From the NCBI GenBank assembly GCA_963796955.1, contig CAWCNJ010000004.1, positions 192,001 through 256,000 of the forward strand: DNA of 64,000 nucleotides, in the 5' to 3' direction. The notes below the pieces were generated by a model, which saw only the letters and a program-made list of their open reading frames with translations, was not told the DNA's origin and ran no database searches. The position numbers and the translations under genes are program-made. Below, one piece after another: positions 12,040 through 63,579 of the stretch; positions within the stretch are counted from its first letter, which is position 1, and each line of letters starts with the position of its first letter. The DNA is from Endomicrobiales bacterium (GTDB taxonomy: Bacteria; Elusimicrobiota; Endomicrobiia; Endomicrobiales; JALOBY01).

Positions 12040-12093
12040 AAAATGGGCTCGCACCCAAGCATCGTCAAACTCGAGGCTGTGTTGTTGTAAATG

Positions 12094-13741: not shown

Positions 13742-13742
13742 G

Positions 13743-14729: not shown

Positions 14730-14730
14730 G

Positions 14731-16529: not shown

Positions 16530-16539
16530 ATTACTTAAA

Positions 16540-16716
16540 TCCCCGTGATGGCGGTTGTCACAGGGGAATCGGGCTTCCCCTCCGGGGACTTGGTCGCTGT
16601 CGTGCCTATGCGGCACGCCATGACGCTCGGTCGCCGCCCATCCGAATATCCAGTTTCGCTGGCCAAACAATGCAATTTCTTCACCCGACACCCCTGCGCC
16701 AACCTTGGTTTGGGTG
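16540..16716. repeat. GC-rich multi-hairpin intergenic element between moxR and DUF58
   Basis: Hairpins CCCCGTGA..TCACAGGGG, TCCCC-TCC-GGGGA and CGTGCC-TATGC-GGCACG in a ~190-nt gap of a compact operon. Confidence 0.4.
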
Positions 16717-17706
16717 TTAGGGAACTGGAACGCCGTCAAAAACCTGTTTGACAATATCGTCACTCGTCATATCTTCGGCTTCAGCTTCATACGTCATGAT
16801 AACTCTGTGTCGAAGAACGTCCGGGCCTATTGTCTTTACATCTTCCGGTGTTACGTAACCCCTGCCTTGCAGGAATGCATACGCTTTGGCTGCCTGCGCA
16901 AGATAGATCGTTGCTCTTGGCGAACCTCCGTAAGCTATTAACGGTTTCAGGTTCTCAAGGCCGAAGGAGGCCGGCTCGCGTGTCGCGAAAACTATGTCTA
17001 CGATGTAATTCTTAACTTTATCATCAGTATATATCTTGGCAACGGTGTGGCGAGCTCTCTTGATATCTTCAGGGCCGATAACAGGACTTACTTTGAGCAT
17101 GTCATCAGAGGTCATGCGCTCCAATATCATTTTTTCTTCATCGCGCTTCGGATACGTTATCTTCAGCTTCATCATAAAGCGGTCAACCTGCGCTTCAGGC
17201 AGCGGATATGTTCCTTCCTGCTCTATGGGGTTTTGCGTCGCCAGCACCAGGAATGGTTCTTCCAGAGGATACGTTGTATCGCCAATCGTTACCTGACGCT
17301 CCTGCATAGCTTCCAGCAGGGCGCTTTGCACTTTAGCCGGAGCACGGTTAATTTCGTCGGCAAGTATTATATTGCTGAAGACGGGCCCTTTTTTTACGGA
17401 GAATGAAGCCGAGGCCGGGTTATAAACCAGCGTACCCACAAGGTCCGCCGGCAAAAGGTCGGGGGTGAACTGTATGCGCTGGAATTTGGTTTTCATCGCC
17501 GATGCAAGCGTCTTAACCGCCAGCGTTTTTGCAAGGCCGGGCACGCCTTCCAGCAGTATGTGTCCGTTCGCCAGAATGCTTATCACCATGCGCTCCAGCA
17601 AATACTGCTGGCCCACGATCACCTTGCTCATCTCGTTCATCAGCTGAGCGGTGAAAACACTTTCCTGTTTTACCAGCTCGTTTATCTCTTTAATGTCCAT
17701 CGCCAT
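16717..17706 (-). CDS. moxR: MoxR-family AAA+ ATPase
   Basis: GHILLEGVPGLAKT, RIQFTPDLLPAD, LADEINRAPAKVQSALLEAMQE, ATQNPIEQEGTYPLPEAQVDRF. Confidence 0.95.
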   Translation of the reverse strand: MAMDIKEINELVKQESVFTAQLMNEMSKVIVGQQYLLERMVISILANGHILLEGVPGLAKTLAVKTLASAMKTKFQRIQFTPDLLPADLVGTLVYNPASASFSVKKGPVFSNIILADEINRAPAKVQSALLEAMQERQVTIGDTTYPLEEPFLVLATQNPIEQEGTYPLPEAQVDRFMMKLKITYPKRDEEKMILERMTSDDMLKVSPVIGPEDIKRARHTVAKIYTDDKVKNYIVDIVFATREPASFGLENLKPLIAYGGSPRATIYLAQAAKAYAFLQGRGYVTPEDVKTIGPDVLRHRVIMTYEAEAEDMTSDDIVKQVFDGVPVP

Positions 17707-17746
17707 ACCGTCCCTCCGGTTTTTACTTATATGCATTCTGTGCTTT

Positions 17747-17872
17747 CGGTTGGGCATCCGGTTTTTCGGCGAGTATTTTCAGAGTGTGTCGCTTCTCGAG
17801 GCCCTCGTCATGAAACGCAGTTTCAGAGGGCCGTTCTGAAAATATCGAGCCGGAAAACAGCATGCTCAACCG
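17747..17872. repeat. ~125-nt long imperfect hairpin upstream of moxR
   Basis: CGGTTGGGCAT/ATGCTCAACCG, GTTTTTCGGC/GCCGGAAAAC, TATTTTCAGA/TCTGAAAATA, and inner GCCCTC/GAGGGC and TGAAAC/GTTTCA pairings. Confidence 0.55.
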
Positions 17873-29481: not shown

Positions 29482-29572
29482 TCGGCGGCTCAGGATATTC
29501 GGTCGTCCCCTTCGGGGACTCCCTCATTTCGCTCGCCGCTAAACTGCATCGGCGGCTCAGGATATTCGGTCG
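29482..29572. repeat. Perfect 24-bp direct repeat flanking a REP-like hairpin
   Basis: TCGGCGGCTCAGGATATTCGGTCG at 29482-29505 and 29549-29572; GTCCCC-TTCG-GGGAC-type hairpin between them. Confidence 0.8.
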
Positions 29573-30693
29573 CGGAAGCGGATGGCGGCGAGGGAAGTTA
29601 CGGCTACAAAAAATACCACGGTAATGGCGACGTTCGTCCAGACCAGTTCGGGGTTGGCGCCTTTAAGCATGACGTTGCGTACTATCTGGACGAAGTAGGT
29701 GAGCGGGTCCAGATGTGCTGTGGCCCGTATGAACGCGGGCATGTTCTCTATGGGGAACATGATGCCGGACAATAATATCGCCGGAAAGATAAACAGGAAC
29801 GAGCCCATCATGGCTTGCTGCTGATTTTTCGCTATGGTAGAGATGAAGATACCGATCCCGACGGCGGTGCTCACGAACATCAGGGCCGCCAGTATCAGCA
29901 GCAGCAGGGAACCTCTCAGCGGCACGCCGAATATTAAAAACCCCCCGGCCGTTACCAGCAGCGCGTTGACCACGCCCATCACAATGAAGGGGAAAGATTT
30001 CCCGAGGATTATCTCCAGCGGGCGCACGGGTGCTGCTATTATGGTCTCGAAGGTGCCCAGCTCTTTCTCCCTGGCAAGCGACATGCTGGAAAGCATAACG
30101 GTGGTAATGCACATGATCATAACAATAATGCCCGGTACCATGAAAAACGCTGTCTCCATGGTCGGGTTATACAAGAACCGTGTGTCAAAAACTACTGCCG
30201 GGCGCAGCCGGGCCTGCGAGAGTTTGTCTTGAGAGAATTGCAGCGTTATAAGGCGGAAATAATTTTCTATCGCCCGTGCCTTGGTCGTGTTCTGGGCGTC
30301 TATCAGTAGTTGAATGCGGGCTGCATGGCCGGAGCCAAAGGGTTCGCCCCTGCCGATGGCTTTGGTAAGGCCGCCCGGCGGCATGATCGCTACGGCATCG
30401 GCGGCGCCCGATCTCAAATAATCTTGCGGCGTTGTTTTTGAAGAACTCGGCAGAATGAACCAGCCTGAGGCGTAAAGCCGGTCATGCAGCTGGCGGGCCA
30501 CAACATCACTTGGTTCAAAAACAAATGAAAGTTTTAAATTCTTGAATTCGTTCGAGATCGCGTAACCGAAAAGCGTCAGCTGCACCACCGGAACCACCAG
30601 CAAAAATATCCTCATCACCGGATCGCGCAACACCTGCGCGAATTCCTTCTTAAAAAATCCTTTAATAACGCGATGGTCTATATTCATGTTCAT
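29557..30693 (-). CDS. ABC-2 exporter permease (YbhR-like)
   Basis: KEFAQVLRD, FGYAI, YNP, VPG, AREKELGTFE, LSG..FPIENMP. Confidence 0.9.
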   Translation of the reverse strand: MNMNIDHRVIKGFFKKEFAQVLRDPVMRIFLLVVPVVQLTLFGYAISNEFKNLKLSFVFEPSDVVARQLHDRLYASGWFILPSSSKTTPQDYLRSGAADAVAIMPPGGLTKAIGRGEPFGSGHAARIQLLIDAQNTTKARAIENYFRLITLQFSQDKLSQARLRPAVVFDTRFLYNPTMETAFFMVPGIIVMIMCITTVMLSSMSLAREKELGTFETIIAAPVRPLEIILGKSFPFIVMGVVNALLVTAGGFLIFGVPLRGSLLLLILAALMFVSTAVGIGIFISTIAKNQQQAMMGSFLFIFPAILLSGIMFPIENMPAFIRATAHLDPLTYFVQIVRNVMLKGANPELVWTNVAITVVFFVAVTSLAAIRFRDRIS

Positions 30694-30695
30694 GA

Positions 30696-31817
30696 TTAAG
30701 GTTCAATATCCCTTTTAAAGCGTTTTGAGGCGGCGACTAACAGCAGTACGCTCATGAAGGCCAGCACAAGGAAGGGGACCATAAGGTCCAGAAGGCCGGC
30801 TCCCTTAAGCATGATACCTCGTACTATCTGCATGAACCAGCGCTGAGGAAGCAGCATGGTAAGGCCCCTGAAAAACATGGGCATGCTTTCTATCGGGAAA
30901 ATGAAGCCCGATAAAAGCAGCGACGGCATAAGGCCTATTATCAAAGATGCCTGCATTGCTTTTTGCTGCTGGCGGGCGGTGATGGATATCATGAGACCGA
31001 TCGCCAGGGCGATAAATGTGAACAATACGCAGGCGACGCCAAAAAGCAGGTAGCTGCCCTGGAACGGTATCGAGAAGACCATTTGCGCCATGGCCAGCAC
31101 CAGTACTATGCCGCTTAAACCCAGGACCGCATAAGGAAGTATCTTGCCGATTATAACCTCCAATGGTGTTACCGGAGTCGATAGCAGCATCTCCATGGAA
31201 CCATTCTCCCATTCCCGGGCTATGGTAAGAGCGGTCAATAAAATAGAGAGCAAACCGGTGACTACTACAATTAGGCCGGGTACCACGAACCATTGAGTAT
31301 TGAGTTCCGGATTATAAAGAAAACGCGTGATCACGGGGATCGGGTCGTGAGTCGTTACTCCGGTCAGCTTTGAGGAAGCCGCTACCTGCAGCTGTGCCAG
31401 ATAGCCGCCGATAACCCCTGCCTTTGTATTGTCCGAACCGTCCAGCAGGATCTGCACGTTCGCCGGCGCCCCTGTTTGTATCTTTTTTTCGAACTCCGGC
31501 TCTATGATCAGCGCCGTCGAGACCCGTTCGGATTCTATAGCGCCGATAGGGCTCAGTCCCTCCGGCGTGCCGGTCGGGATGAAATATTCGCTCGCGGCGA
31601 AGGTCTGCACCAGTTCGCGGGACTGCTCGGTGCGGTCCCTGTCGAAAACGGCAAGTTTTATATTACGAAAATTAAAATCTATCGTAAATCCAAAGAATGC
31701 CACCAGTATCACCGGAACGCCCACCGCCATGGCGATGGTAAAAGGATCCCGTAACACATGCATTACTTCCTTGCGGGCGATGGCGAGCGCTCTGGCCGGA
31801 ACGAAAGAACCGTTCAT
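30696..31817 (-). CDS. ABC-2 exporter permease (YbhS-like)
   Basis: KEVMHVLRD, DGSD, YNPEL..VPGL, AREWENGSME, LSGFIFPIESMP. Confidence 0.9.
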   Translation of the reverse strand: MNGSFVPARALAIARKEVMHVLRDPFTIAMAVGVPVILVAFFGFTIDFNFRNIKLAVFDRDRTEQSRELVQTFAASEYFIPTGTPEGLSPIGAIESERVSTALIIEPEFEKKIQTGAPANVQILLDGSDNTKAGVIGGYLAQLQVAASSKLTGVTTHDPIPVITRFLYNPELNTQWFVVPGLIVVVTGLLSILLTALTIAREWENGSMEMLLSTPVTPLEVIIGKILPYAVLGLSGIVLVLAMAQMVFSIPFQGSYLLFGVACVLFTFIALAIGLMISITARQQQKAMQASLIIGLMPSLLLSGFIFPIESMPMFFRGLTMLLPQRWFMQIVRGIMLKGAGLLDLMVPFLVLAFMSVLLLVAASKRFKRDIEP

Positions 31818-32737
31818 CTTGAGTCTCCTTCCACTAACCGCATGAAAACGTCTTCCAATGATGGAGTAATGACCCCTGAGCTGTAACCCTGCGGCAGGGA
31901 GCGCCGTATCTTTTCGACGGAGTCTTTGCTTTTCGTGACGGCATGATAGCGTAATCCCATGGGCCAGAAACGGGCGACCTCGCTGTCTGCCGACAAATGA
32001 GCGGCGATACGCTGATGACCAACACCGGGAGCAGATATCTCCATCACCGGTTCCGGATAGGCCTGCGCTTTAAGTTCGGCCGGGCTGCCCATGGCGATAA
32101 CAGAGCCCGCGCGCATCAGCGCTATCCTGCCGCATTGCTCCGCTTCGTCCATATAATGAGTTGTTACTATAACCGTTTTGCCTTTGCCTGCCAGGTTTCG
32201 TATCAGTTCCCAGAATTTCGCCCTGACCGACGGGGAAACGCCCGAGGTAGGCTCGTCGAGAAAAATGATCGATGGGTCGTGCAGCAGGGTGGCCGCGAGG
32301 GAAACTTGTTGTTTTATGCCGGAGGGCAGATCCCGGACCATGGTGGCTATGGGATAAATAAAACCTATGAATGAGAATAATTCTTCCATACGCTGCTTCG
32401 CCAGGATCGGTTCCATACGGCGCAAGGACGCCTTAAAGGACATATTTTCCGCCACCGTAAGATCATCGTACAGCGTGAATTTTTGCGACATGTAACCGAC
32501 GATAGATTTGATATCGCGGCCGTGGGCGGCACAATCCTGCCCGCCAACGCACACCGAGCCCGAGGTTGGCATAAGCAAACCGCACAGCACGCGAATAGTG
32601 GTGGTCTTGCCCGCGCCGTTGGCCCCCAGAAAACCGAAGATCTCTCCCGTTGCGACAGAGAAACTCACGTTGTCAACGGCCGTGAAATCGCCGAACTTTA
32701 CGGTTAATCCGTTCAGTTCTATCGCAGGACCGTTCAT
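31814..32737 (-). CDS. ABC exporter ATP-binding subunit
   Basis: GANGAGKTT, YMSQKF, LDEPTSGV, TTHYMDEAE. Confidence 0.92.
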   Translation of the reverse strand: MNGPAIELNGLTVKFGDFTAVDNVSFSVATGEIFGFLGANGAGKTTTIRVLCGLLMPTSGSVCVGGQDCAAHGRDIKSIVGYMSQKFTLYDDLTVAENMSFKASLRRMEPILAKQRMEELFSFIGFIYPIATMVRDLPSGIKQQVSLAATLLHDPSIIFLDEPTSGVSPSVRAKFWELIRNLAGKGKTVIVTTHYMDEAEQCGRIALMRAGSVIAMGSPAELKAQAYPEPVMEISAPGVGHQRIAAHLSADSEVARFWPMGLRYHAVTKSKDSVEKIRRSLPQGYSSGVITPSLEDVFMRLVEGDSR

Positions 32738-33453
32738 GCTTTTGCCTTCTGTAGGAATATCTCGTCGAAACTGCCGGCAGCGGCATCCTTGAGCAGCGCG
32801 CCCGGTTCGCCGTTGAGCAGTAGTTTTCCGTTGTCAAGAAAGTGCACTCTTGAGCAGCGTTCCGCCTCATCCATATACGCGGTTGAAACGATCACGGAAA
32901 TGTTGTCGGCGATAAGCGCATAGAGCAATTCCCAGAATTCCCTGCGGCTTATGGGGTCGACCCCGTTGGTGGGTTCATCCAGAAGAAGTAATCCGGGCGA
33001 TTGCAGCAGCGTACACATCAGGGCGGTTTTTTTGTACATCCCGCCTGATAATTTTCCAACGGGTCTTTCCACAAAGCTTTCCAGCCGCGTTATGGCAAGC
33101 AGTTCCTGACGACGCTTGTGATACGCGTCCGCCGTCAACTGATAGAGATCTTTAAAGAACTCCAGGTGTTCGTTAATGGTTAGATCGGGGTACAAACTCG
33201 CTTTAGAAGGCATATAGCCTATTTTTGCGCGAATGTCGTTAAAGCGTGCAGGTGCGCCCTTAAAGGTATAATTTATTTTGCCGCTTCCTGCGTGCAGCAG
33301 CCCGGCCATGATGCGCATAAGTGTCGTCTTTCCCGCGCCATCGGGACCGATAAGCCCGTGCAGAAGTCCCGGCTCAAATGATACGGTCAGGTCGTTGAGT
33401 GCCGTGGTTTTATCGAATGTTCGATATAAATGTTCTGTTTCAATGCCTATCAA
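32734..33453 (-). CDS. ABC exporter ATP-binding subunit
   Basis: GPDGAGKTT, LSGGM, LDEPTNGVDP, STAYMDEAE. Confidence 0.92.
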   Translation of the reverse strand: MIGIETEHLYRTFDKTTALNDLTVSFEPGLLHGLIGPDGAGKTTLMRIMAGLLHAGSGKINYTFKGAPARFNDIRAKIGYMPSKASLYPDLTINEHLEFFKDLYQLTADAYHKRRQELLAITRLESFVERPVGKLSGGMYKKTALMCTLLQSPGLLLLDEPTNGVDPISRREFWELLYALIADNISVIVSTAYMDEAERCSRVHFLDNGKLLLNGEPGALLKDAAAGSFDEIFLQKAKA

Positions 33454-34172
33454 GGCAGTTTCACCTCTACCGTCATGCCGGGTTTCATGAACCGGTCTGC
33501 ATTATTGAAATTGATCTTGACACCGTACACCAGTCTGGTGCGCTCATTGCGCGTCTGCACGTTCTTGGGGGTGAACTCGGCTTCCTCGTTGATCTTTATT
33601 ATGGTACCCGGTATGGTTTTCATGTTCGCTTCAGCCACGACGCCCTCCACCGTCATACCGGTTTTGATCTTCGCCAGACCATCATGCGCTACATATATAT
33701 ACGCCCATACGGTAGAGAGATCTTCCAGCATTAAAAGTTTTGTGCCGGGGTTCACCATCTCGCCGGGTTCATGGTACCTGGTGATCACGGTGCCTTCCAG
33801 CGGCGAAGAGATCGTACACCAGCTTAAGCGCACCATCGCGTCATCGTATTTAAATTTAAGCCGGTCGAAGGTTTCACGGTTCATCGAGCCGTCCGCCAGC
33901 AGCTGCACCGCCCGCCGGTAATCCCGCCCTGCGGCATCGGCGGCCACCCGCACGTCGTCGCCCGAGATGGAGACCAGCAGATCGCCTTTCTTTACGTTGT
34001 CGCCCTCCTGCACGGTCACCTTTTCGATGGTGCCCATCAGCCGCGATGACAACTCTACCGTCGTCGCTTCCACCGTTCCTGCATACAGGAATTGACTTCG
34101 CTTGCCGGCCACAAAAGCCACTATCCCCGCGAGCACCAGCACCGCAATAATGACCGGTATCCGTTTTTTCAT
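33450..34172 (-). CDS. HlyD-family periplasmic adaptor (YbhG-like)
   Basis: GTVEAT, V.EGD.VKKG, ISSPLEG, AEFTPKNVQT..ER..LVY.VK. Confidence 0.9.
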   Translation of the reverse strand: MKKRIPVIIAVLVLAGIVAFVAGKRSQFLYAGTVEATTVELSSRLMGTIEKVTVQEGDNVKKGDLLVSISGDDVRVAADAAGRDYRRAVQLLADGSMNRETFDRLKFKYDDAMVRLSWCTISSPLEGTVITRYHEPGEMVNPGTKLLMLEDLSTVWAYIYVAHDGLAKIKTGMTVEGVVAEANMKTIPGTIIKINEEAEFTPKNVQTRNERTRLVYGVKINFNNADRFMKPGMTVEVKLP

Positions 34173-35557
34173 TTTGTTGTTTCTCCTTCTTGTGTTGAAG
34201 CCAGTATCGCCTCGTTTATCAATAACTGTATCTGTACCCGTGCCAATTGCAGCTCGGCCTCAAGCACCTGGTAATTTGCAGTCTGTAATTCCAGATACGT
34301 AAGGGCGCCGGCCCGGTAAGACCGGTAGGATATGCCGGCAAGCTCACCGGCCTCCGATGCCGCCTGAGCCGCCATCGTCCGTTGACGCTTTAACGCTGTT
34401 AACTGGTCGTGTGCCTTTGCCCAGTCGCGGAAGAGGCCGCGCGCGATCTGTTCCCGCCTGGCCTGCGCTGAAAGCTCCTGAGAGCGATAGCCGGCAGCGC
34501 GATCTTTATCCGCATTACCTTCGAACAATGACCAGCTGAGGTTGGCGCCCAAGGTGTTCTGATTTATGGTTTCAAGCACCATGGTGTTCGGGTAATCTAA
34601 CGATGTCCGGGCGGTTAATTGCAGGCGCGGCCAGAAGGCTGCATCCGCTGCGGCCGCGGCGTAATGGGCGGATTCTATCAGTTTCTGCGCTTCCATCAGC
34701 GTCGGGTGCGCCTCCCATAATGTACCTTCGTCGTAGCGCGAGAACCGGGAAAGCAGGTCGTCTACCGGATCGATCTGGGTGATGATGTTCGGTTCAACGG
34801 TATCTTTTAATGTTAAACCGCTGACACGTTTGTCCAGGGGAATGCACGTTCCGGGCAGCGCCGGTGTGCCGCCCGTAAGCGCCGCAAGCTCGCGCAACGC
34901 GCCTGCCATATCAGCCTGGGCCCGGGTTAGCTGCTGCTGCCGTGAAAGCAGTTCCTGGTGCGCGGAAAGTTGATCGATGCGGCTTTTCGCGCCGGCCTTC
35001 ACCTGCTTGGTTATATCGTCGTACTGTGTGCCGGAAAGATTAACGGAGTTAGAAAGCACTACCAGTTGTTCGCTGGCCAGTGTAAGTTGAAAATAGAGGG
35101 TACGGCATACCAGCAGTTGCTGGCGCTTGACAGCCTCGGCTTCCTGCTCTTTTGCGTTTGCATCTGACATGGCGCTGCCGTAAGAGTTGCGTACGGCCCC
35201 GCCGTCAAAGGCTGTCCAGGCGAGTGTCGGACCGACAGAATAATTGGTGTTATCGCCAAGTTTTTGATCGATTGCCAGGGGACCGGCTTTTACATTGAGC
35301 TGGGGCACCACCGTAATGTAACGGTAACTGCCTTCTATGCTCAGGCGCGGATAGACCGGCCCGTGCAGAGCGTCGGCCCGGTAGTGCGCCGCCTTTGCGT
35401 CGTTGAGCGCTGCCTGATATTGAGAGGAATTTTCCAGCGTTAGCTTTTCCGTCTGTGCCAGAGAGACCATCACCGTCGCAGGTTCGGCCGCGTACAACGG
35501 CAGACTGATAACATTCAGCAGGGCGACCAGCACGGCTCGTTTTGAAGATGTGCGCAT
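34169..35557 (-). CDS. TolC-family outer-membrane efflux protein
   Basis: Signal peptide, two OEP repeats (YPRLS..W..FDGG; WPRL..WSLFEG), Y.AG..YLEL. Confidence 0.85.
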   Translation of the reverse strand: MRTSSKRAVLVALLNVISLPLYAAEPATVMVSLAQTEKLTLENSSQYQAALNDAKAAHYRADALHGPVYPRLSIEGSYRYITVVPQLNVKAGPLAIDQKLGDNTNYSVGPTLAWTAFDGGAVRNSYGSAMSDANAKEQEAEAVKRQQLLVCRTLYFQLTLASEQLVVLSNSVNLSGTQYDDITKQVKAGAKSRIDQLSAHQELLSRQQQLTRAQADMAGALRELAALTGGTPALPGTCIPLDKRVSGLTLKDTVEPNIITQIDPVDDLLSRFSRYDEGTLWEAHPTLMEAQKLIESAHYAAAAADAAFWPRLQLTARTSLDYPNTMVLETINQNTLGANLSWSLFEGNADKDRAAGYRSQELSAQARREQIARGLFRDWAKAHDQLTALKRQRTMAAQAASEAGELAGISYRSYRAGALTYLELQTANYQVLEAELQLARVQIQLLINEAILASTQEGETTK

Positions 35558-35684: not shown

Positions 35685-35777
35685 ATAAGCATGGAATTAG
35701 TCGGCTGGTTTTGCTATAATAATTGGGAAGCACAGAATATCTAGTTTAATATGCGCAACTCCCCCCGGAGATACATA

Positions 35778-37187
35778 ATGGTATTGCAGAATGTTTTGTT
35801 ATCATTGCTTGGGTCTGCGTTTTTCCTGCTCTTATGCGCCGGGGCATATCTCTACGCCGGTCTGCGCCGTAAGAACGGTGCGCTGAAAGACTTAACCCTT
35901 CAACTGGAACAGAAATTAGTAGACAATACCCGGGAACTGTCGCAGACTATCAGCGACCTGAAGCGCAGCGAAAAGGCCAGAAAAGAATTTATCGCGGGCA
36001 TTACCCACGACCTGAAATCGCCGCTGGCGGTCGTTGTGGGCCACACCGAACTGATCAAGTACGCCGTTCAGCCGGGTTCCGACATGTGGAAGTTCTCTGA
36101 AAATATTTTCGCCTCGGCAAACCATCTAAGCCGCCTGGTAGACCGGCTTGTTTCCACCGCCCTGCTGGAGAGGGAAGAAAGACCCATCCTTGACCTCTAT
36201 GATTACGCGTTCTATGTCCGGACATTTTTCAATATGTTTCAGGATGCCGCCCGCAGGAAAAACATCCGTTACGAACTGGTCATAGCGCCCGAACCCATCA
36301 TTATACAGGCGGACATCACCCTGCTGGAAAGAACTCTTGCCAACCTGGTGCAGAACGCGTTTAAATTCACACCGGAAGGCGGCAGCATCACCATGCAGGT
36401 GCACAAGCAGGGCTCGCTCGTTTACACGCGGGTGATCGACACGGGCGTGGGAATCCCTGCCGACAAACTGGACCGGATCTTCGAGAGAGGTTTCCAGGCG
36501 AATGCCGATCATAAAGACCTTGGGTTCGGCCTTGGTTTGAACATTGTAAAAGAGACGCTGGTTAAACTTGGGGGCGACATAATCGCCACCTCCACTGAGG
36601 GAAAAGGCAGCACGTTCACGTTGTCGCTGCCGCTCCACGCAAACCAGCAGGCCGATGTGCAAAGGACGACGGCACGTATCCTCGGCGCCTCTACCGATCC
36701 CAAAGACAGCATTATTCCGATGCTGAAACAGGCGATCGAATCGGAATCAAAATATCCCGCCTTCAGGAACGATCCCAGGTCGTACGAAAACAAATCGCCG
36801 GAAAAACTTACGCTGATGCTTGTTGACGACACCCCGGGTCAGCTGTCGCTGACCATCGCCTCCCTGAGCAAAGACTTCAACCTGCTGATAGCGCAAAGCG
36901 GCGCCGAAGCTCTTGAAAAACTTGCGAAGCATAAAGGTAAGGTCTCAATGGTCCTCTCCGATATGAGAATGGACGGCATGTCCGGCCTTGACCTGCGCCG
37001 TGTATTAGCCGAGAACGTAAACTACAGCCACATCCCCTTCTTTATCCTGACCGCATACGCCAATGATGACGACGCGCTTAAGTCTTACAAGATAGGCGCA
37101 TTCGAATATCTCTCAAAACCCGTAAATTCTTACATATTGAAAGAACGCATCAACCTGTGGCTGAATAAGACACAGGGGCATTGCTGA
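35778..37187 (+). CDS. Hybrid histidine kinase (TM-HisKA-HATPase-REC)
   Basis: ITHDLKSPL H-box, NLVQNAFKFT, DTGVGI, GFGLGL, C-terminal LMLVDD..SDMRM..LTA..KP. Confidence 0.92.
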   Translation: MVLQNVLLSLLGSAFFLLLCAGAYLYAGLRRKNGALKDLTLQLEQKLVDNTRELSQTISDLKRSEKARKEFIAGITHDLKSPLAVVVGHTELIKYAVQPGSDMWKFSENIFASANHLSRLVDRLVSTALLEREERPILDLYDYAFYVRTFFNMFQDAARRKNIRYELVIAPEPIIIQADITLLERTLANLVQNAFKFTPEGGSITMQVHKQGSLVYTRVIDTGVGIPADKLDRIFERGFQANADHKDLGFGLGLNIVKETLVKLGGDIIATSTEGKGSTFTLSLPLHANQQADVQRTTARILGASTDPKDSIIPMLKQAIESESKYPAFRNDPRSYENKSPEKLTLMLVDDTPGQLSLTIASLSKDFNLLIAQSGAEALEKLAKHKGKVSMVLSDMRMDGMSGLDLRRVLAENVNYSHIPFFILTAYANDDDALKSYKIGAFEYLSKPVNSYILKERINLWLNKTQGHC

Positions 37188-37262: not shown

Positions 37263-38807
37263 ATGGTCAATCGATCAAAGCAACGCGTAGAGATCACGGT
37301 AGACGCCGGCATGAAAGTACGTTGTCTGAACCAGCCTAACCTGGCCGGAAATGTGATACTGGTAGACGTGTCGATCAACGGTATGAGCCTGATCGCCGGA
37401 CACCCTCTCGAAAAAAAAATAGATGCCGAAATACAATTGCCGGACAGGTATGTAACCAAAGGTATAGCATGTAAGTTCTCCGTGAAAGCGGAACTTATGT
37501 GGATGAGGTATAGCGAGAATGATAAAACATATATACATGGTTATAGATTTGTAACCCTGGACGAAATAGCAGAGCGCTGCCTGGCCATGCTCATTGAGTA
37601 TGAAATAGAAGAGGACAGGAAATCACTGAAGCTGTTGATACCCAAAGAGCGGCATGACAACTATACAAGGAGCGCCATTAAGGACCGGCTCCAGTGGCTT
37701 TCACACAAAACAAAAACAGGTTTTGCGCATATTCCGCGATTCTCCGTAGATCCCGCCACTTACAAGGGTAATGTTGAAAATATGATCGGAGTCTGCCAGG
37801 TGCCACTGGGGATAGCCGGTCCATTAAAGATTAATGGACAGGAAGCACGTGGTGAATTTTATGTTCCGCTGGCAACAACAGAAGGCGCGCTCGTCATGAC
37901 CTACGATTTAGGAATGCGGCTTATCACAAAGTCTGGTGGAGCCACTACCAAGGTGATACGAGATGCAATACAAATATCTCCGATATTTCACATAGGACGC
38001 ATGTCAAAATCCGATGAGTTTAGCGAGTGGATAAATAAGAATTACGCGACGGTTAAAGATAAGTTCGAAGGGACAACACACCATGGAAAACTCATTAGTG
38101 TAGTGCCCGTTACAATAAACTCGCATGTTGTGGTCAAATTTACTATGTTCACAGGAGATGCACAAGGTCTAAATATGATAAACCGCGCCGTACGCGAGGC
38201 GTGTGAATATATCTCACAATCGACGGGTTACTCCTATATCCAGCGCGCTAATTATTCAGGTATAAAGAAAGTAAATATGGATAATATCTTTAATGGTTTG
38301 GGTAAATCTGTCGTTGCAGAAGTGACAATACCAAGGTCGATACTGAAACTATTGCGTGTGACACCTGAACAGGTGTGCGCATACTACAATAACTGCTTGC
38401 TGGCAAGTGTGTATTCGGGAATGATAGGTATGAATGCTCATGTTGCAAATGCCCTCAGTGCAATATACATTGCATGTGGCCAGGATGTCGCTGACATTCA
38501 TGTTTCTAGTATCGCATACATATCTTATGAGATGACGGAATCTGCCGACCTGTACGCCAGGCTGTATATACCTAATCTTCTCGTTGGTACTGTCGGTGGG
38601 GGGACATCGATCGGCACTCAGAGGGAATGTTTGGAAATACTGGACTGCCATGGTTCCGGAAGATCAAAGAAATTTGCCGAAATTGCCGCGGCATCAGCTT
38701 TGGCAGGTGAAATCACCGTTGTTGCTGCACTAATAAATGGCGAGTATGTTGGAGCACATGAAAAGTACGGTAGAAATAAGACCAAGCATTTGAAGGCGGT
38801 CGCTTGA
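37263..38807 (+). CDS. PilZ domain fused to a class I HMG-CoA-reductase-like enzyme
   Basis: N-terminal RSKQR..DVSINGM..WMR..HGYRF (PilZ); ENMIG, PLATTEGALV, TGDAQGLNM, GQDVA, VGTVGGGT, LAGE, AHEKYGR (HMGR). Confidence 0.85.
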   Translation: MVNRSKQRVEITVDAGMKVRCLNQPNLAGNVILVDVSINGMSLIAGHPLEKKIDAEIQLPDRYVTKGIACKFSVKAELMWMRYSENDKTYIHGYRFVTLDEIAERCLAMLIEYEIEEDRKSLKLLIPKERHDNYTRSAIKDRLQWLSHKTKTGFAHIPRFSVDPATYKGNVENMIGVCQVPLGIAGPLKINGQEARGEFYVPLATTEGALVMTYDLGMRLITKSGGATTKVIRDAIQISPIFHIGRMSKSDEFSEWINKNYATVKDKFEGTTHHGKLISVVPVTINSHVVVKFTMFTGDAQGLNMINRAVREACEYISQSTGYSYIQRANYSGIKKVNMDNIFNGLGKSVVAEVTIPRSILKLLRVTPEQVCAYYNNCLLASVYSGMIGMNAHVANALSAIYIACGQDVADIHVSSIAYISYEMTESADLYARLYIPNLLVGTVGGGTSIGTQRECLEILDCHGSGRSKKFAEIAAASALAGEITVVAALINGEYVGAHEKYGRNKTKHLKAVA

Positions 38808-40942
38808 TAAAGTATTTCCTATTCGGTTGTTATTTAAATAGCTTGGTCAGCGCTCTAGTGGCTGTATTTGTACTTATAAAAGCGCCGTCTAAAAAAATAA
38901 ATGTGCTATGGTGCTTGTTTGGCATCAGCGTTGCACTATGGAGCCTCGGTCTGGGAAGAATGTCATGTTCAGTAGATCAACGAACCGCGACCTTCTGGCT
39001 CGAAAAAGTACATTATCTTGGCGCCATATTCATCCCGACTCTCTTTCTCCATTTCGTACTTGCGATGACGAAAATGGATAATGATAAACGTGGAAGGCTC
39101 ATAATATTATCGGCCTACATATTCTCAGTGACTATGCTTGTTGCTAACTTCAGCCATGCACTTGCTACAGTAGTTCCCAAGGAACCTTTCAATTATTACA
39201 CATACCCCGGGCCTTTATACAATGCATTTTCTGTCGGTTTTTTTGTATACATAGTTTATTCTCTTTACGTGCTGTATCACGAATATAAGCATCTTTCAGG
39301 AATAAAAAGGAACCAATTTAAATATCTGTTTTTTGGTATGGGTGTCGGATTCGCGGGTGGATCGACTGCATTCTTTCCAGTGTATAATATTCCGATCCCG
39401 CCGGTCGGTATTATATTCGCATCATTGTATATTGCGATAGTATCGTATGCCATCGTAAAATATCACCTGCTGGATATCAAGGTCGTCATCACCAGAGCGA
39501 GTATGTTTGTGGTTGTGTATGCATTCGTGATGGGCATACCTTTTTTCCTTTTATATCATATAAACTCGCAAATTTTGACATTGATAGTTGCCATGGTTTT
39601 AGCGACCATCGGTCCTATCTTGTATCGCAAGCTTCAGCAAAAATCTGAAAACCTGCTGCTTGCAAAACAGAGGGAATATCAAAAGCTGTTGCGTAATGTT
39701 TCGAAGGAAATGCTCAGGGTTCGCGATCTTGATAAGTTGCTTCCGTATATTGTGGAAAGCGTTACCAATGCGGTCAATCCGGAGTTTTCCGCTATATATC
39801 TGGCGCATGAAGGGGAATACGTTTTAAAGGCGTGGCGCAAGGTCAATCCCGAACCGGCGTACAGCTCTATTTCTGCCGGTCATCCCATGATAAAAGTGCT
39901 TAAGAACGTGGGCCCCATTGTTTTTTATGATGAAATGAAGGAGAATATATCTGAGATCGCCCTTCCGCTTCATTTATTGATCTCTCTTAATGTCGATAAC
40001 CGGCTGGTGGGCATATTGCTGCTGGGCAAGAAGATGGACGGCGATATGTACAGCAGCGATGACCTGGATGTATTCGAGATACTGGCGCGCCAGGCGGCTC
40101 TGGCCATAGATTATTGCATGTTCAATAAAGAGTTCCAGAAGAACGAACGAAAAATCTACGGCGATGAACTGCGTGCCAGCGTTACCGGCATGGCGAAAAC
40201 CGTGGCGCACCAGATGGTCAATCAACTCAGCAAGTTCTCCATGCCGGCGCAGTACCTTAATATGGAGTTCGAAAAGTTCCTTGAAGAGAATGCAAGCCTC
40301 GTAAAAGCGAACCCCAATTTGAAAGAGGCGATAAATAACGTTTTTAAAGTTTCAGGCGAAATAGAGATCAACGTGCAAAAAGCGCGTAACATGCTTGATA
40401 AGATGAGCTATTTCGTTAAATTCCAATCCGAAATAGCGCATGCGCACGATTCTTTAGATATAAAGCCGTTGATGGATATGGCCATGAATGAGGTACGTAA
40501 TAAACATTCCCTGCGCGATATACAAATTAACATTTCGATCCCGGAAGGCGCAAGAATATACGGCATAAAATCCATGGTTTATGATACCTTATACAATCTG
40601 CTGGATAATGCGTACGATGCGGTAGAACATAACGCCGAGGCCCGTTCCCAGAAAGAAATAGCTGAACCATATATTCCGTCGATAACTATTGCGCAATTGG
40701 ACCATGCGGACAGGGCGGTTATCTCCGTCACTGACAACGGCATCGGGATGAACGGCAAGATCTACGATAAGGTATGTAATCCCTTCTTTACCTCGAAGTC
40801 GTCTGCCACCGCTTCGATAGGAATCGGACTGTATATGGTTAAGTGCATGGTCGAAGAGATACATAACGGCAAATTATGGTTTGAATCTGAATACGGTGTG
40901 GGCTCGGTCTTTTATGTGTCGTTCCCTCACCGCAAGGCTTAA
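38804..40942 (+). CDS. Sensor histidine kinase with N-terminal multi-TM (HisKA_7TM-like) and GAF-like domains
   Basis: 7+ hydrophobic helices, YAIVKYHLLDIKVVI, GILLLGKK..YSSDD..LARQAALAI, AHQMVN, NLLDNAYDA, DNGIG, PFFTSK, GIGL. Confidence 0.85.
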   Translation: MIKYFLFGCYLNSLVSALVAVFVLIKAPSKKINVLWCLFGISVALWSLGLGRMSCSVDQRTATFWLEKVHYLGAIFIPTLFLHFVLAMTKMDNDKRGRLIILSAYIFSVTMLVANFSHALATVVPKEPFNYYTYPGPLYNAFSVGFFVYIVYSLYVLYHEYKHLSGIKRNQFKYLFFGMGVGFAGGSTAFFPVYNIPIPPVGIIFASLYIAIVSYAIVKYHLLDIKVVITRASMFVVVYAFVMGIPFFLLYHINSQILTLIVAMVLATIGPILYRKLQQKSENLLLAKQREYQKLLRNVSKEMLRVRDLDKLLPYIVESVTNAVNPEFSAIYLAHEGEYVLKAWRKVNPEPAYSSISAGHPMIKVLKNVGPIVFYDEMKENISEIALPLHLLISLNVDNRLVGILLLGKKMDGDMYSSDDLDVFEILARQAALAIDYCMFNKEFQKNERKIYGDELRASVTGMAKTVAHQMVNQLSKFSMPAQYLNMEFEKFLEENASLVKANPNLKEAINNVFKVSGEIEINVQKARNMLDKMSYFVKFQSEIAHAHDSLDIKPLMDMAMNEVRNKHSLRDIQINISIPEGARIYGIKSMVYDTLYNLLDNAYDAVEHNAEARSQKEIAEPYIPSITIAQLDHADRAVISVTDNGIGMNGKIYDKVCNPFFTSKSSATASIGIGLYMVKCMVEEIHNGKLWFESEYGVGSVFYVSFPHRKA

Positions 40943-40951
40943 GGAGCGCTG

Positions 40952-42119
40952 ATGAACGAAAATACTCAGATACAGGTGCTTGTTGTTGACGACGATAAAA
41001 GTTTGTGTGAAACTACCGCCGCGCTTATAAACGCCGGGAATGGGTATCATGCGGAGTACGTGCAGTCCGGTTCTGGAGCGCTGCACTATTTGGACGAACA
41101 TCCAGACACCGATATTGTTTTGCTGGACTTCAACCTGGGACCTGACCAGATGAACGGTCTGGATGCGCTTATGCAGCTAAAAAAGCAGAACAGCCGGGCG
41201 CAGGTTATCATGCTTACCATTGAAGATACGCTCACGACAGGGATAGCCTGTATGAAGGCGGGCGCCTTCGATTATCATGACCAAGCCGTTCCATATTAAA
41301 GTCTTCGACGAAAAAGCAAAGACCGCGCTGGAAAAACAGCGGGCTCACGAACTTTCTGAAAGCGAAAAGAATGCCATGATCGCCGGTATGGCGGAAGGAT
41401 TATCCCACTCTATCAATAACAGGTTGAGTGATTTCTCTCTTTCATCCAGCGTCCTGATCCTTGAGATCGAAAAGATGATGGAGTGCGGTTTTCGCGGGAT
41501 CGAAGGCAATCCCGAGGTGAAAAGATCGATGGATAATATCTTGAATGTGGCCTACGGCATCAGCAACAATGTCGTCAAGACGGCGGGCATCGTTCGCGGC
41601 ATTGCGAATTACGCACGTATGAAAACAGAAGGGCGCTCGAACGATTATTTTAGTTTTGAAGACAGCGTGGAAGCCGCTCTCAGGGTGCTGCGGGTTAAAG
41701 ACGGTATCGGGGATTTTCCACTGGAGGTATCGGTGGTCGGCGGCATGACGGGGAACATCGCGGTGTTGACCGAAATACTGATCGCGTTGCTGGAAAACGC
41801 GTATGAGGCGACTCAAGAGAAGGCGAATCTTGGTTCCGGCGGATATTCGCCGCACATAAAACTTTCCTTCTCAAAAGAAAAAGATACGATCACGCTGCAG
41901 GTTACCGACAATGGCATCGGCATAAAAGAGGATGTAACGCATAAAATTTACGCGCCGTATTTTACCACAAAAGCATCGGCAAGGAATTATATCGGCAGCA
42001 GTCTGTTCATGGTTAAAAAAATGATAACGGAAGAATACAACGGGCGGATCCTTTGCAGCTCGGAATCGATGAAGGGAACTGCTATACTTATAGAGATACC
42101 TGATAATGGGAGACATTAA
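40952..42119 (+). CDS. Receiver-histidine kinase hybrid, with one frameshift at ~41277
   Basis: REC (VLVVDDD..LLDF..MLT..GAFDY) joins MTKPF if one C is removed from GATTATCATGACC; then LSHSINN, LLENAYEA, DNGIGI, PYFTTK. Confidence 0.8.
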
Positions 42120-42468
42120 GTCAGTACTTATCATAGACGATGTTGAAGGGTTGAGTTATTATCTGGCCAGGACCTTTGAACGGGCCGGCGTAAAACCTTA
42201 CGAAGCCCGCGGCGGCGAGCAGGGCATACGGTTATTCAGGGAGGCCGCCCCGGACCTTGTTCTGCTGGATATGCATTTGCCCGATATGAACGGACTGGAT
42301 GTGCTGTTGAAGATCAGGGAGCTTGGTCCCGCGGCCCGAGTCATGATAATGTCCGGTGACGCCGGACTTGTCGCCCAGCTGAGGCAGACAGTCCCCGCGA
42401 TAGAATTTGTTGACAAACCGATCGACATGCGGGATCTTTTCGAAAAACTTGGACTTTCGCACAGGTAG
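42106..42468 (+). CDS. Single-domain response regulator
   Basis: VLIIDD..PDLVLLDMHLPDMNG..MSG..KP. Confidence 0.9.
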   Translation: MGDIKSVLIIDDVEGLSYYLARTFERAGVKPYEARGGEQGIRLFREAAPDLVLLDMHLPDMNGLDVLLKIRELGPAARVMIMSGDAGLVAQLRQTVPAIEFVDKPIDMRDLFEKLGLSHR

Positions 42469-42499
42469 CTGGCGCAAATGAAAAATAAGGAGGCTTGCT

Positions 42500-42946
42500 A
42501 TGGATGAACACACTGAAGCCGGTCAAAACGATTTTGGAGGCAGGCGCAGCGCGCCGCGGGCCTTTGCCAACGACCTGCTTTGCAAAGTTTCGACCGTCGA
42601 TATTCCCAATAGCGTGCATGCCAATATTTTAAATATCGGCACCTACGGCCTTATGGTGGCCCTTAAACTTAAACTTGCATCGGCCATGCCGGTTATAGTG
42701 AATATTTTCCTGCCGGTGCCGTTCGGCGAAATAGCATTAAAAGGAACCGTTTCCTGGGTGGCGAAAGAACAGGAACATTATGTGTGCGGGATTGATTTCA
42801 CTGAAAATGATGAGGACGGCAATCTGGCAACGATGAGGAGATACGTGACCAACGTCATCAAGGACACGAATATTGTCGAACGCAGGAAAAGCCGCGGGCG
42901 TGGCGCAAAAGTATCGGTGGAACGAAGGGCCAAGCGCCCCCGCTGA
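42500..42946 (+). CDS. Stand-alone PilZ-domain protein
   Basis: RRSAPRA..NIGTYGL..GTVSWV..CGIDF; AGGAGG RBS. Confidence 0.7.
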   Translation: MDEHTEAGQNDFGGRRSAPRAFANDLLCKVSTVDIPNSVHANILNIGTYGLMVALKLKLASAMPVIVNIFLPVPFGEIALKGTVSWVAKEQEHYVCGIDFTENDEDGNLATMRRYVTNVIKDTNIVERRKSRGRGAKVSVERRAKRPR

Positions 42947-42976
42947 CGCCTGATATCAGCCTCTGCGAGATTTAAG

Positions 42977-43008
42977 CCGCTTTCTTCACGAAGGCGGTTT
43001 TTTCTTTT
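42977..43008 (+). terminator. Rho-independent terminator closing the signalling cluster
   Basis: CCGCTTTC-TTCAC-GAAGGCGG followed by a T-tract. Confidence 0.7.
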
Positions 43009-43102: not shown

Positions 43103-43825
43103 ATGCGTAAAATAGTCTATTCGATAATACTGCTGTTAATTTCTATAGTGCCGGTATATGCGGGCGGGACCGACCTGAGTTTGTGGGGCGGTTACGCGAC
43201 GTTCGCCATGAATGATGTTAATAATTTCCTCAAAGACAGCGTGGGGTCGGGCGGATCCGTTACAAAAGTAAGCGATGGCTATCTCTTCGGTGCTGATGCG
43301 TTGTTCCAGGTTAACGGAGCGCCCATGCTTTGGCTTGGTCCCCGCGTAGAGTACCTGGGCTGTACCCGGGGTAAGGCCTCAAATGCGACCGTGGATCTTA
43401 AGGAAGATCAGTACCTTATCCCTATCCTGGTCGGTGGAAAATATCAGCTGGCTGAAAGCGGCAAGTTCGGGCTTGATGGGAAGGCCTTCCTCGGAGTCGG
43501 TCTTGGGTATGCGACCACTAATTCTACCAGTTATTCCGGCACGGGTTTTGTAGGAGAATTGGGCGTCGGCGGAACATATAAAGCGTCAAGTGTCATCAGT
43601 ATTGGCTTGGACGTGGGCTATCGGTTCGCCGATCTCGGTTCGATGGGTTCCGGCGGGTATGGAAGCAGCAGCAGTAGCACCGGCACCGGGACGGGCACGG
43701 GGACTACGTATGCGAAAGGACTTAACAACACACCGCCTTTGGTAAACCCGGTCACCGGCTCCAATGTTAAGTATGATTTCAGCGGTATGATCTTGAATCT
43801 TGGCGTAACGTACCATTTTAAATAA
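43103..43825 (+). CDS. Small outer-membrane beta-barrel protein
   Basis: Signal peptide, alternating strands, C-terminal LNLGVTYHF beta-signal; S/T/G-rich loop. Confidence 0.75.
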   Translation: MRKIVYSIILLLISIVPVYAGGTDLSLWGGYATFAMNDVNNFLKDSVGSGGSVTKVSDGYLFGADALFQVNGAPMLWLGPRVEYLGCTRGKASNATVDLKEDQYLIPILVGGKYQLAESGKFGLDGKAFLGVGLGYATTNSTSYSGTGFVGELGVGGTYKASSVISIGLDVGYRFADLGSMGSGGYGSSSSSTGTGTGTGTTYAKGLNNTPPLVNPVTGSNVKYDFSGMILNLGVTYHFK

Positions 43826-62560: not shown

Positions 62561-63579
62561 ATGGTAACAAAACGCATCTACCTTAAAAGTTCCGATGAAA
62601 GTGCTTCGCATCCTGGGTGAGCAGGACGCGAATATGCGCTTATTGGAAAACAAATATGGTGTGCAGATATTCGTTAAACAGGGCGGCGCGCAGGGTGATT
62701 TCTCTCTGGTCGTGCGCGGGGCCGGCATTAAGGTGGATCGCGCCGTAGGGGAGATAGAAGGCTTGCGCTCTGCACCGACGGCTCGGGTCGAGCAGGTAAA
62801 GCCTGTGCCGGCCGCCGTGCAAGCAGGGCGTTCCCTGGAACCCGCGTTCTTTGCTGTTCCCTCCAACGGCCCAATGAGCCCGGATACGATCTATGTTACC
62901 GTCCAGGGAAAGCGCATCGTGCCCAGGTCAGCTCATCAAAAGAATTATGTAGAAAGCATACTTAAACACGATATGGTGATGGCTATCGGCCCGGCCGGAA
63001 CGGGAAAAACCTTTCTCGCCGTCGCCTGCGCTCTTCGCGCCCTGCAAAACGGTAAAGGTTAACCGCATCGTTCTGACCCGTCCCGTCGTCGAAGCGGGTG
63101 AACGTCTGGGTTTTTTACCGGGCGATCTCTATGAAAAGATCAATCCGTACCTGAAACCGCTTTATGACGCCTTTTACAGCATGATAGGCCCTGAACGCTT
63201 TCGTTTTTTCCGTGAGGAAGAAACGATAGAGATCGTGCCGCTTGCGTATATGCGCGGACGTACCATTGATAACGCCTTTATTATCCTTGATGAGGCGCAA
63301 AACACTACGCCTGAACAGATAAAAATGTTCCTGACCCGCATGGGCTCTAACAGTAAAATGATAATTACCGGCGACCCGACGCAGACGGACTTGCTGGATA
63401 GAAAGCAATCGGGCCTGGTGGTCGCTGAAAAGATCCTGAACGAGATAGAGGGTATAGATTTTGTGCGTTTCGGTGAAGAGGATGTCGTCCGGCACGCGCT
63501 GGTTAGAAAGATCATTAACGCCTATGACGCCGCCGATAAAAAGTCGGCCAATGGAAAGACGCCCGGAGCTTCAAGATGA
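62561..63579 (+). CDS. phoH: PhoH-family ATPase, with frameshifts at ~62598 and ~63055
   Basis: [11 protein letters not shown]; after removing one [54 protein letters not shown]. Confidence 0.9.

Follow-up and report, generated by a model that had tools for sequence, protein, structure and literature searches.

A PilZ-fused HMG-CoA reductase homologue encoded beside a HisKA_7TM sensor kinase: a candidate lipid-signalling module in Elusimicrobiota and other phyla

The operon described here lies in a stretch of 64,000 nucleotides, hereafter the window, from an Endomicrobiales bacterium of the phylum Elusimicrobiota (GenBank assembly GCA_963796955.1, contig CAWCNJ010000004.1, positions 192,001 to 256,000 of the forward strand). 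Its first gene encodes a protein, P0001, in which an N-terminal PilZ domain is fused to a domain of the HMG-CoA reductase family (HMGR; HMG stands for 3-hydroxy-3-methylglutaryl), and its second gene a sensor kinase, P0002, with the seven-transmembrane (7TM) region known as HisKA_7TM. Genes for a histidine kinase with a receiver (REC) domain, a single-domain receiver and a second PilZ protein follow, and the series closes with a terminator-like hairpin (Table 1). An earlier note, made from the letters of the window, had described this arrangement, including the 4-bp overlap of the first two genes and a further hybrid kinase just upstream, and the open reading frames (ORFs) and Pfam matches agree with it, the REC-kinase gene being split by a frameshift. 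Pfam recognizes only PilZ and HMG-CoA_red in the first protein, and HisKA_7TM, GAF and HATPase_c in the second.

Table 1. Features of the signalling operon and of the adjoining efflux operon, in window coordinates.
Feature	Coordinates	Strand	Basis and remarks
HisKA-HATPase_c-REC hybrid histidine kinase	35751..37187	+	ORF, Pfam; 75 nt 5′ of the enzyme gene
PilZ-fused HMGR-fold predicted reductase, 514 aa (P0001)	37263..38807	+	ORF, Pfam, alignments to PDB 6hr7 and 1dq8
PilZ part of P0001, aa 4-111	37272..37595		helix and linker continue to about aa 135
Reductase core of P0001, aa 138-504	37674..38774
HisKA_7TM-GAF-HATPase_c sensor kinase, 712 aa (P0002)	38804..40942	+	Pfam; TTG start
REC-histidine kinase, frameshifted	40952..42119	+	ORFs 40952-41299 (REC) and 41277-42119 (HATPase_c kinase)
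Single-domain receiver (REC)	42106..42468	+	Pfam, translation
Stand-alone PilZ protein, 148 aa	42500..42946	+	Pfam, 34.9 bits against a cut-off of 22.5
Intrinsic-terminator-like hairpin, 11 pairs, then T-run	42974..43000	+	marks the operon end
Tripartite efflux operon: OEP/TolC-like, HlyD, two ABC ATPases, two ABC-2 permeases	29557..35557	-	Pfam; divergent from the signalling operon

The TTG start of the sensor gene overlaps the stop codon of the enzyme gene by 4 bp, and the upstream hybrid kinase probably belongs to the same signalling unit as the enzyme gene. The two ORFs of the REC-kinase overlap in different frames, with the receiver motif GAFDYxTKPF (DYxTKPF) interrupted after its DY near 41272-41280; the first frame terminates in ...GAFDYHDQAVPY and a stop codon, while the second starts with MTKPFHIK. 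This split motif indicates a single REC-kinase gene broken by a frameshift, whether through a fault of assembly or as a genuine lesion. The stand-alone PilZ protein has RRSAPR as its first motif and a degenerate second one, NIGTYG (Ser replaced by Gly). The first two genes had also been described, by eye, as more AT-rich than their flanks, and their GC contents of 0.450 (enzyme) and 0.435 (sensor) indeed lie about 1.5 standard deviations (sd) below the genome mean of 0.507 (sd 0.04, 1.5-kb windows); the anomaly is a mild one, however, as some 6-7% of the 1.5-kb windows of the genome are equally low.

P0001 matches the HMG-CoA_red profile (PF00368) with 349 bits over positions 1-368 of 368, that is, as a full-length domain, and it belongs to class I, the archaeal and eukaryotic type. 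Its best solved relative is the enzyme of Methanothermococcus thermolithotrophicus (6hr7, E 6e-83), followed by human HMGR (1dq8, E 1e-53), and it displays the ENxIG, DAxGxN and GTVGGGT motifs of class I. An AlphaFold model (mean predicted local distance difference test score, pLDDT, 78) places an N-terminal beta-domain before an HMGR core. In human numbering, obtained as the chain position in 1dq8 plus 421 and verified on E559, K691 and D767, the catalytic residues E559, K691, D767 and H866 are retained as E207, K335, D408 and H499. According to the text of PMC9500038, the HMG moiety is held by polar contacts with R590, S684, D690, K691, K692 and N755 and by a salt bridge from its carboxylate to K735. 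Four of these positions are changed in P0001 (R590 to I238, S684 to R328, D690 to I334 and K735 to N376), and the position of human L862 is occupied by Tyr495.

A precedent for such a combination exists in FcrA, an HMGR homologue shown to reduce long-chain acyl-CoA, and not HMG-CoA, to the alcohol with NADPH and to be insensitive to simvastatin (Grossi et al. 2025, ISME J, PMC11948995). The exclusion of HMG is ascribed in that paper to the loss of the carboxylate-bridging lysine (printed as Lys795), to a bulky residue in place of L862 and to a Glu at S684. Judged by its residues, P0001 follows the same logic, with the catalytic machinery intact and the HMG pocket dismantled, by different residues and with two extra hydrophobic replacements. 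When 172 HMGR-family proteins are tabulated at these positions, three patterns can be told apart. The archaeal proteins (n=30) keep Arg at R590 (30/30), Ser at S684 (26/30), Asp at D690 (29/30) and Arg or Lys at K735 (24/30), mostly with Leu at L862. A 23-row FcrA-like clade has Arg at R590, Glu, Ala, Ser or Arg at S684, Asp at D690 in 22 rows, a variable K735 position and Trp at L862. The group of the window enzyme carries Ile, Val, Phe, Leu, Met or Ser at R590, Arg, Gln, Ala or His at S684, Ile, Asn, Val, Asp or Glu at D690, variable residues at K735 and Tyr or Phe at L862. The lost HMG-contact residues and the FcrA precedent both support the view, already advanced in the earlier note, that the enzyme would reduce an acyl thioester other than HMG-CoA to an alcohol.

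The assembly comprises 2.10 Mb in 11 contigs, is 81% complete and contains one HMGR-family gene. The earlier note had seen no mevalonate-pathway gene in the window, and none of these families is found among the 72 window ORFs scanned with Pfam. Its check on which isoprenoid route the genome encodes speaks for its proposal, with Dxr and IspH of the methylerythritol phosphate (MEP) pathway present and no match to the HMG-CoA synthase N-domain (PF01154) or mevalonate kinase (TIGR00549) in this 81%-complete genome. Six GGDEF matches indicate that cyclic di-GMP (c-di-GMP) is made by the cell, and four AMP-binding matches of the acyl-CoA-ligase type are present. A search for the wax ester synthase/diacylglycerol acyltransferase family (WS/DGAT) gave no match, and is uninformative since control genomes were equally silent. 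A lipid-signalling module, rather than a mevalonate gene, appears to be the best explanation of the operon.

PilZ domains bind c-di-GMP through the motifs RxxxR and (D/N)xSxxG. The fused PilZ of P0001 (PF07238, 29.0 bits against a cut-off of 22.5), modelled as strands within aa 8-98 followed by a helix at aa 101-122, keeps both of them as RSKQR (R4..R8) and DVSING (D35..G40), as had been noted. Its presence suggests that the reductase is placed under c-di-GMP control. Fusions of this kind are common, PilZ accompanying HMG-CoA_red in 35 of the 120 relatives listed, REC in two and a 4HBT_2 thioesterase-like domain in two. Among 22 aligned fusions, RxxxR occurs in 18, (D/N)xSxxG in 11 and both motifs in 11, including the window enzyme.

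P0002 matches HisKA_7TM (PF16927) with 66 bits against a cut-off of 28.6 and HATPase_c with 63 bits against 26.4. It has no Pfam match to HisKA, a domain present in most orthologues at other loci, and a candidate phosphoacceptor His lies in VAHQMVNQL. The model of aa 1-300 (pLDDT 87) is a helical bundle with a conserved beta-hairpin at aa 121-135, and W46, P78, H83, Y105 and Y215 are invariant across 17 enzyme-linked sensors. A Foldseek search with the 7TM model was tried as a clue to the ligand and set aside, since it returned only generic bundles of class C G-protein-coupled receptors (TM-score 0.45-0.5, root-mean-square deviation 5-6 Å, E about 1e-3). The literature found on HisKA_7TM, as far as its accessible text goes, mentions the domain in lists and names no ligand.

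Conservation of the enzyme-sensor pair was followed over 172 distinct HMGR-family loci, in which ORFs were called in the fetched loci, duplicates were removed and the surroundings were scanned with local profiles and Pfam. The set consists of the matches listed by the scans and of phylum-wide genome searches and is not a census, the collection scans having contributed mostly unfused HMGRs. A HisKA_7TM sensor lies within 2.6 kb of the enzyme in 19 of these loci, which come from Elusimicrobiota, Nitrospirota, Omnitrophota and metagenomes, so that the pairing proposed for the window is kept across phyla. In 17 of the 19 the two genes are directly adjacent on the same strand, with stop and start codons mostly overlapping; in the other two, a ketosynthase (KS) gene stands between them (L094) or the sensor lies 2.5 kb upstream (L091). 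The other 153 loci, including an Acidobacteriota clade (65), an Actinomycetota clade (11), the archaeal rows and the FcrA-like clade, have no 7TM sensor. HMGR homologues are scarce in the two phyla that were sampled: five of 301 genomes belonging to the phylum of the window contain them, in every case with an N-terminal extension, and in a Nitrospirota-type phylum the figure is 10 of 301.

On a quick, unrooted FastTree phylogeny (172 rows by 366 columns; no order of events is read from it) the 19 linked enzymes fall in one region beside the archaeal clade, and the linked label requires four changes, compared with a mean of 18.3 for shuffled labels and none of 500 shuffles as low. Over the 17 pairs, enzyme and sensor identities are correlated (Mantel r 0.63, a value reached by no permutation among 5000), and the nearest neighbours of the two proteins coincide in 11; as relatives are not independent, this correlation indicates co-inheritance and no more. 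The remaining neighbours vary between the linked loci, while the pair is kept in at least three phyla at 40-58% enzyme identity. The enzymes themselves vary at the N-terminus: of the 19, six have a PilZ recognized by Pfam (one of them double), six match the PilZ part of the fusion profile without a Pfam match, one has REC, one 4HBT_2, two a short extension (about 56 aa) in which no domain is recognized, and three have no extension.

Several genes recur beside the linked pair. A FadL/TodX outer-membrane channel is encoded within 1.5 kb in six of the 19 loci; the enzyme gene comes after KS and acyl carrier protein (ACP) genes in L115 and before a FabF-like KS gene in L094 (two of 19). Signalling proteins are also added, namely a REC-kinase, an NtrC-type regulator and a REC-HD-GYP protein in L018, a GAF-GGDEF protein in L169, and a receiver with a nucleotide cyclase in L171, and in L094 both 7TM-GAF sensors have an HD-GYP domain at their end in place of a kinase. 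A CMAS-like methyltransferase adjoins the enzyme in L091. Acyltransferase, WS/DGAT and other lipid-assembly families were absent among the scanned neighbours in the 19 linked loci.

The sensor family reaches further than the enzyme. The five best matches to the 7TM-region profile are the enzyme-adjacent sensors by construction, their sequences having been in the profile; among nine high-scoring sensors from genomes lacking the enzyme, eight adjoin genes for lipid-type enzymes and one (L200) does not. These neighbours are a methyltransferase (L196), FAD amine-oxidase-like proteins with a methyltransferase (L197), a FadL-KS-unknown series (L198), a KS-ICMT/PEMT-B12 radical SAM series (L199), a FAD oxidase with an acyl reductase of the fatty acyl-CoA reductase (FAR) type, NAD_binding_4 (L201), two B12 radical SAM proteins (L202) and a START/polyketide-cyclase-like protein (L203). 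L204 (2812-16001, G284) contains FadL, a FabF-like KS and a 4HBT_2 thioesterase, then six tandem HisKA_7TM-type sensors and a REC-PAS kinase, an unusually large array beside a two-enzyme lipid module. In L201 the non-homologous FAR-type reductase takes the place of the HMGR-fold enzyme before the 7TM kinase. The idea that FAR commonly replaces the enzyme beside 7TM sensors was dropped, just one of seven strong NAD_binding_4 matches in the 301-genome sample adjoining one. In the genome of the window itself, on the same contig and outside the window (L195 5557-9371, equivalent to G000:C4:321556-325370), a FadL/TodX gene is followed by a 144-aa ORF with no Pfam match, which overlaps the next gene by 4 bp, and by a HisKA_7TM-PAS-HisKA-HATPase_c kinase; no HMGR-type enzyme is present. 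FadL and 7TM sensors thus associate even without the reductase.

Other branches of the HMGR family show settings of their own. In the large Acidobacteriota clade (Val or Ile at R590, Glu at D690, Arg at K692), the gene comes after two ketosynthase genes that form a pair resembling KS and chain-length factor, with no 7TM kinase (L090 5496-10743, L007 5324-9185); in L090 it precedes a FAD amine-oxidase-like gene. This setting looks like a lipid cluster of the type II polyketide or fatty acid synthase kind. Three homologues of this clade have N-terminal extensions of 390-490 aa (L024 6816-9218, L037 6705-9194, L139 6525-9227), and that of L024, the one scanned, has no Pfam match. In L193 (1163-4144) and L194 (1361-4063, G486), the HMGR fold is fused at its C-terminus to a small-molecule kinase of the EcKL/APH type, giving proteins of 993 and 900 aa that form a separate long-branched clade.

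Among known systems, the pairs CqsA/CqsS, LqsA/LqsS and RpfF/RpfC (with the HD-GYP protein RpfG) each combine an autoinducer synthase with a membrane sensor kinase. The window pair resembles them in that an enzyme for a lipid-derived small molecule would be encoded beside a polytopic sensor kinase, and the HD-GYP and c-di-GMP links at the related loci L018, L094 and L201 recall RpfF/RpfC-RpfG. There is, however, no homology to these pairs: the enzyme has the HMGR fold in place of an aminotransferase or crotonase fold, the sensor is of the HisKA_7TM type, and the putative synthase itself bears PilZ or REC. The DesK-DesR-Des system of Bacillus subtilis, in which DesK controls transcription of the enzyme gene through a DNA-binding regulator, likewise has a polytopic sensor kinase encoded beside a lipid-modifying enzyme; it differs in that the window enzyme carries a second-messenger or receiver domain on itself and that most of the downstream proteins have no DNA-binding domain. 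BcsA-type cellulose synthase is PilZ-gated, and the enzymes known to be gated in this way are membrane polysaccharide synthases whose PilZ lies at the C-terminus. The window enzyme resembles BcsA in joining a PilZ that has RxxxR and DxSxxG to a catalytic domain, an arrangement that would imply allosteric control by c-di-GMP, and differs in that it is predicted to be a soluble redox enzyme of lipid metabolism with the PilZ at its N-terminus. Class I HMGRs (6hr7, 1dq8) share the fold, the full-length domain and the catalytic tetrad with the window enzyme, and differ in the HMG contacts and in having a membrane domain or N-domain where it has PilZ.

FcrA is closest in kind. As far as the FcrA paper's text goes, the two enzymes have in common the class I fold, the catalytic Glu, Lys, Asp and His, the loss of K735, a bulky residue at L862, hosts without a mevalonate pathway and variable N-terminal accessory domains. 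They differ at four residues: L862 is Trp in FcrA and Tyr in the window enzyme, S684 is often Glu in FcrA and is Arg in the window enzyme, and R590 and D690 are retained in FcrA and both Ile in the window enzyme. FcrA also has Lad or ACP domains, where the window enzyme has PilZ, and is connected with genes for wax esters or ether lipids. The terms PilZ, histidine kinase, response regulator and c-di-GMP do not appear in the main text of that paper (PMC11948995). No description of PilZ-HMGR fusions or of their pairing with HisKA_7TM was found in the literature searched, most subscription journals lying outside it. The earlier note knew of no described system of this form; these searches agree with it as regards the pairing, and the enzyme class has a published relative in FcrA. 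The module is apparently undescribed and built of known kinds, a second-messenger-gated enzyme and an enzyme-plus-sensor signalling pair.

These observations suggest the following mechanism. P0001 would be an HMGR-fold thioester reductase in the manner of FcrA, using NAD(P)H and most likely converting a hydrophobic acyl-CoA or acyl-ACP by a four-electron step into the alcohol, with its N-terminal PilZ gating the reaction by c-di-GMP. The translationally coupled 7TM-GAF kinase would be its obligate partner and would most likely read the lipid product in the membrane, and the signal would pass onward through the REC-kinase, REC and PilZ proteins and the c-di-GMP pool, looping back onto the enzyme. 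Enzyme and sensor may be taken to act in one circuit. We consider it quite probable that P0001 reduces acyl thioesters other than HMG-CoA and is coupled in function to the sensor. The complete statement, a c-di-GMP-gated acyl-thioester reductase with a lipid-sensing 7TM kinase and the loop between them, is put forward tentatively, with confidence a little short of an even balance. That the product of the enzyme is the ligand of the sensor, in an autocrine or quorum-type loop, is a possibility to which we give slightly less credence still. It is favoured by the enzyme variants that bear no regulatory domain and still lie beside a sensor, by the tandem sensor arrays and by the recurrence of FadL and of KS or ACP, as well as by the absence of lipid-assembly genes, by outputs of the c-di-GMP or receiver type and by the patchiness of the module. 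The interpretation in the earlier note is partly supported; its central step, a diffusible signal read by the neighbouring kinase, is a conjecture, and membrane-lipid homeostasis would account for much of the same evidence.

A number of points weigh against this proposal. Substrate, product and c-di-GMP binding are inferred for every member of the group. P0001 has Arg at S684 and not the Glu of FcrA, and it lies outside the 23-row Trp-bearing clade (support 99, in an unrooted FastTree phylogeny without characterized FcrA sequences). Both PilZ motifs survive in just half of the aligned fusions. At the position of the catalytic His866, four linked enzymes (L018, L148, L184 and L189) have Phe; they form a Nitrospirota-type subclade of PilZ-fused enzymes in which the other three catalytic residues are intact. 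The 7TM-region profile matches 80 of 301 genomes of the phylum as against five for the enzyme, and sensors so much commoner than the enzyme indicate that the sensor type is independent of the enzyme's product. The diversity of enzymes beside the paralogous sensors fits membrane-lipid tailoring at least equally well, and the exchange of the HMGR-fold enzyme for a FAR-type reductase is a single case (L201). The window operon, finally, contains no FadL, with just a weak OMP_b-brl match at 43103-43825 (24.8 bits, under the cut-off of 28.7), and no KS, ACP or c-di-GMP enzyme.

The strongest of the alternatives follows the logic of DesK-DesR-Des: the 7TM kinase would sense the physical state or the composition of the membrane, and the reductase, switched by c-di-GMP or phosphorylation, would be the output, supplying fatty alcohol for ether or neutral lipids, so that the product would not be the ligand. 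Receiver-type domains (PilZ, REC) on the enzyme itself are what an output should have, and the CMAS-like methyltransferase of L091 and the lipid-tailoring types of enzyme at eight of the nine paralogous 7TM-GAF kinase loci (methyltransferase, FAD amine-oxidase-like, B12-radical SAM, ICMT/PEMT, KS and START-like) are in keeping with it, as are the ether-lipid roles suggested for some FcrA proteins in the text of PMC11948995. On the other hand, no acyltransferase, AGPS or wax-synthase family adjoins the 19 linked enzymes in the stretches scanned, and the distribution is patchy, at 5/301 and 10/301 genomes in two phyla. Tandem arrays of two to six sensors would be odd for a single physical variable, an outer-membrane FadL channel odd for such a role, and the outputs are mostly c-di-GMP or receiver proteins instead of transcription factors for lipid genes. 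We regard this explanation as somewhat unlikely, while giving it more weight than any other rival.

A further alternative is a module that senses and processes exogenous hydrophobic compounds: FadL would admit a fatty acid or a compound like it, the 7TM kinase detect it and the reductase turn its activated form into an alcohol that is less harmful or can be stored. FadL-family genes occur in sensor-controlled catabolic operons, such as tod. The channel beside six of the 19 linked loci, a further one beside the enzyme-less 7TM-PAS kinase of the same genome (L195) and the FadD-like AMP-binding genes in the genome agree with this. Yet none of the scanned loci has an acyl-CoA ligase, beta-oxidation or alcohol-handling gene beside the enzyme, the KS and ACP neighbours point to synthesis rather than uptake, and the window operon has no FadL; we consider the explanation improbable.

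That the protein is a true HMG-CoA reductase, with c-di-GMP controlling the mevalonate that it makes for an unrecognized or partial isoprenoid route, could be argued from the full-length domain match and the four catalytic residues, and in a genome that is 81% complete missing pathway genes are not proof of absence. It is nevertheless very improbable, given that four HMG-contact positions are changed, two of them to Ile, that the MEP genes are present and neither HMG-CoA synthase nor mevalonate kinase was found, that homologues occur in merely five of 301 genomes of the phylum, and that the characterized relative FcrA is reported in PMC11948995 as inactive on HMG-CoA. Least credible of all is a meaningless adjacency of two genes hitch-hiking on a mobile segment, as the low GC of the first two genes and the patchy distribution might suggest, since the pair is retained in at least three phyla at 40-58% enzyme identity while all other neighbours change, stop and start codons overlap in most pairs, enzyme and sensor co-diverge, and the enzyme bears signalling receiver domains.

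Elsewhere in the window, the divergent efflux operon (Table 1) could export a hydrophobic product; L094, too, has an ABC transporter (FtsX, ABC_tran) directly upstream of its enzyme. A BatA/BatD-type aerotolerance-like operon occupies 10198-17757 on the minus strand and comprises a MoxR AAA_3 ATPase, DUF58, two VWA proteins, a TPR protein and BatD. The reading frame of a PhoH-like gene is divided between two ORFs, 62595-63062 (profile positions 2-48) and 63181-63579 (positions 90-205), a second possible frameshift or gap in the assembly besides that of the REC-kinase.

A wider reading of the family may also be considered, though we hold it to be doubtful. HisKA_7TM proteins would be receptors for lipid signals, and the HMGR-fold reductase a new synthase, gated by c-di-GMP or phosphorylation, of a fatty alcohol or aldehyde autoinducer that crosses the outer membrane through FadL and is detected by the 7TM kinase inherited along with the synthase; such pairs would form a family of quorum or autocrine signalling systems not recognized before, and the module would have spread by gene transfer among Elusimicrobiota, Nitrospirota, Omnitrophota and other uncultured phyla, and sister cassettes would couple other lipid enzymes to other signals. 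The pair offers a first ligand hypothesis that can be tested for the HisKA_7TM sensors, a widespread family. If the proposed mechanism is true, the enzyme would be the first lipid redox enzyme known to be a direct target of c-di-GMP, and many annotations of 'HMG-CoA reductase' in bacteria that have the MEP pathway alone would be functionally wrong. Should the product be the signal as well, the module would open a route to the chemistry of cell-cell communication in phyla with almost no cultured members.

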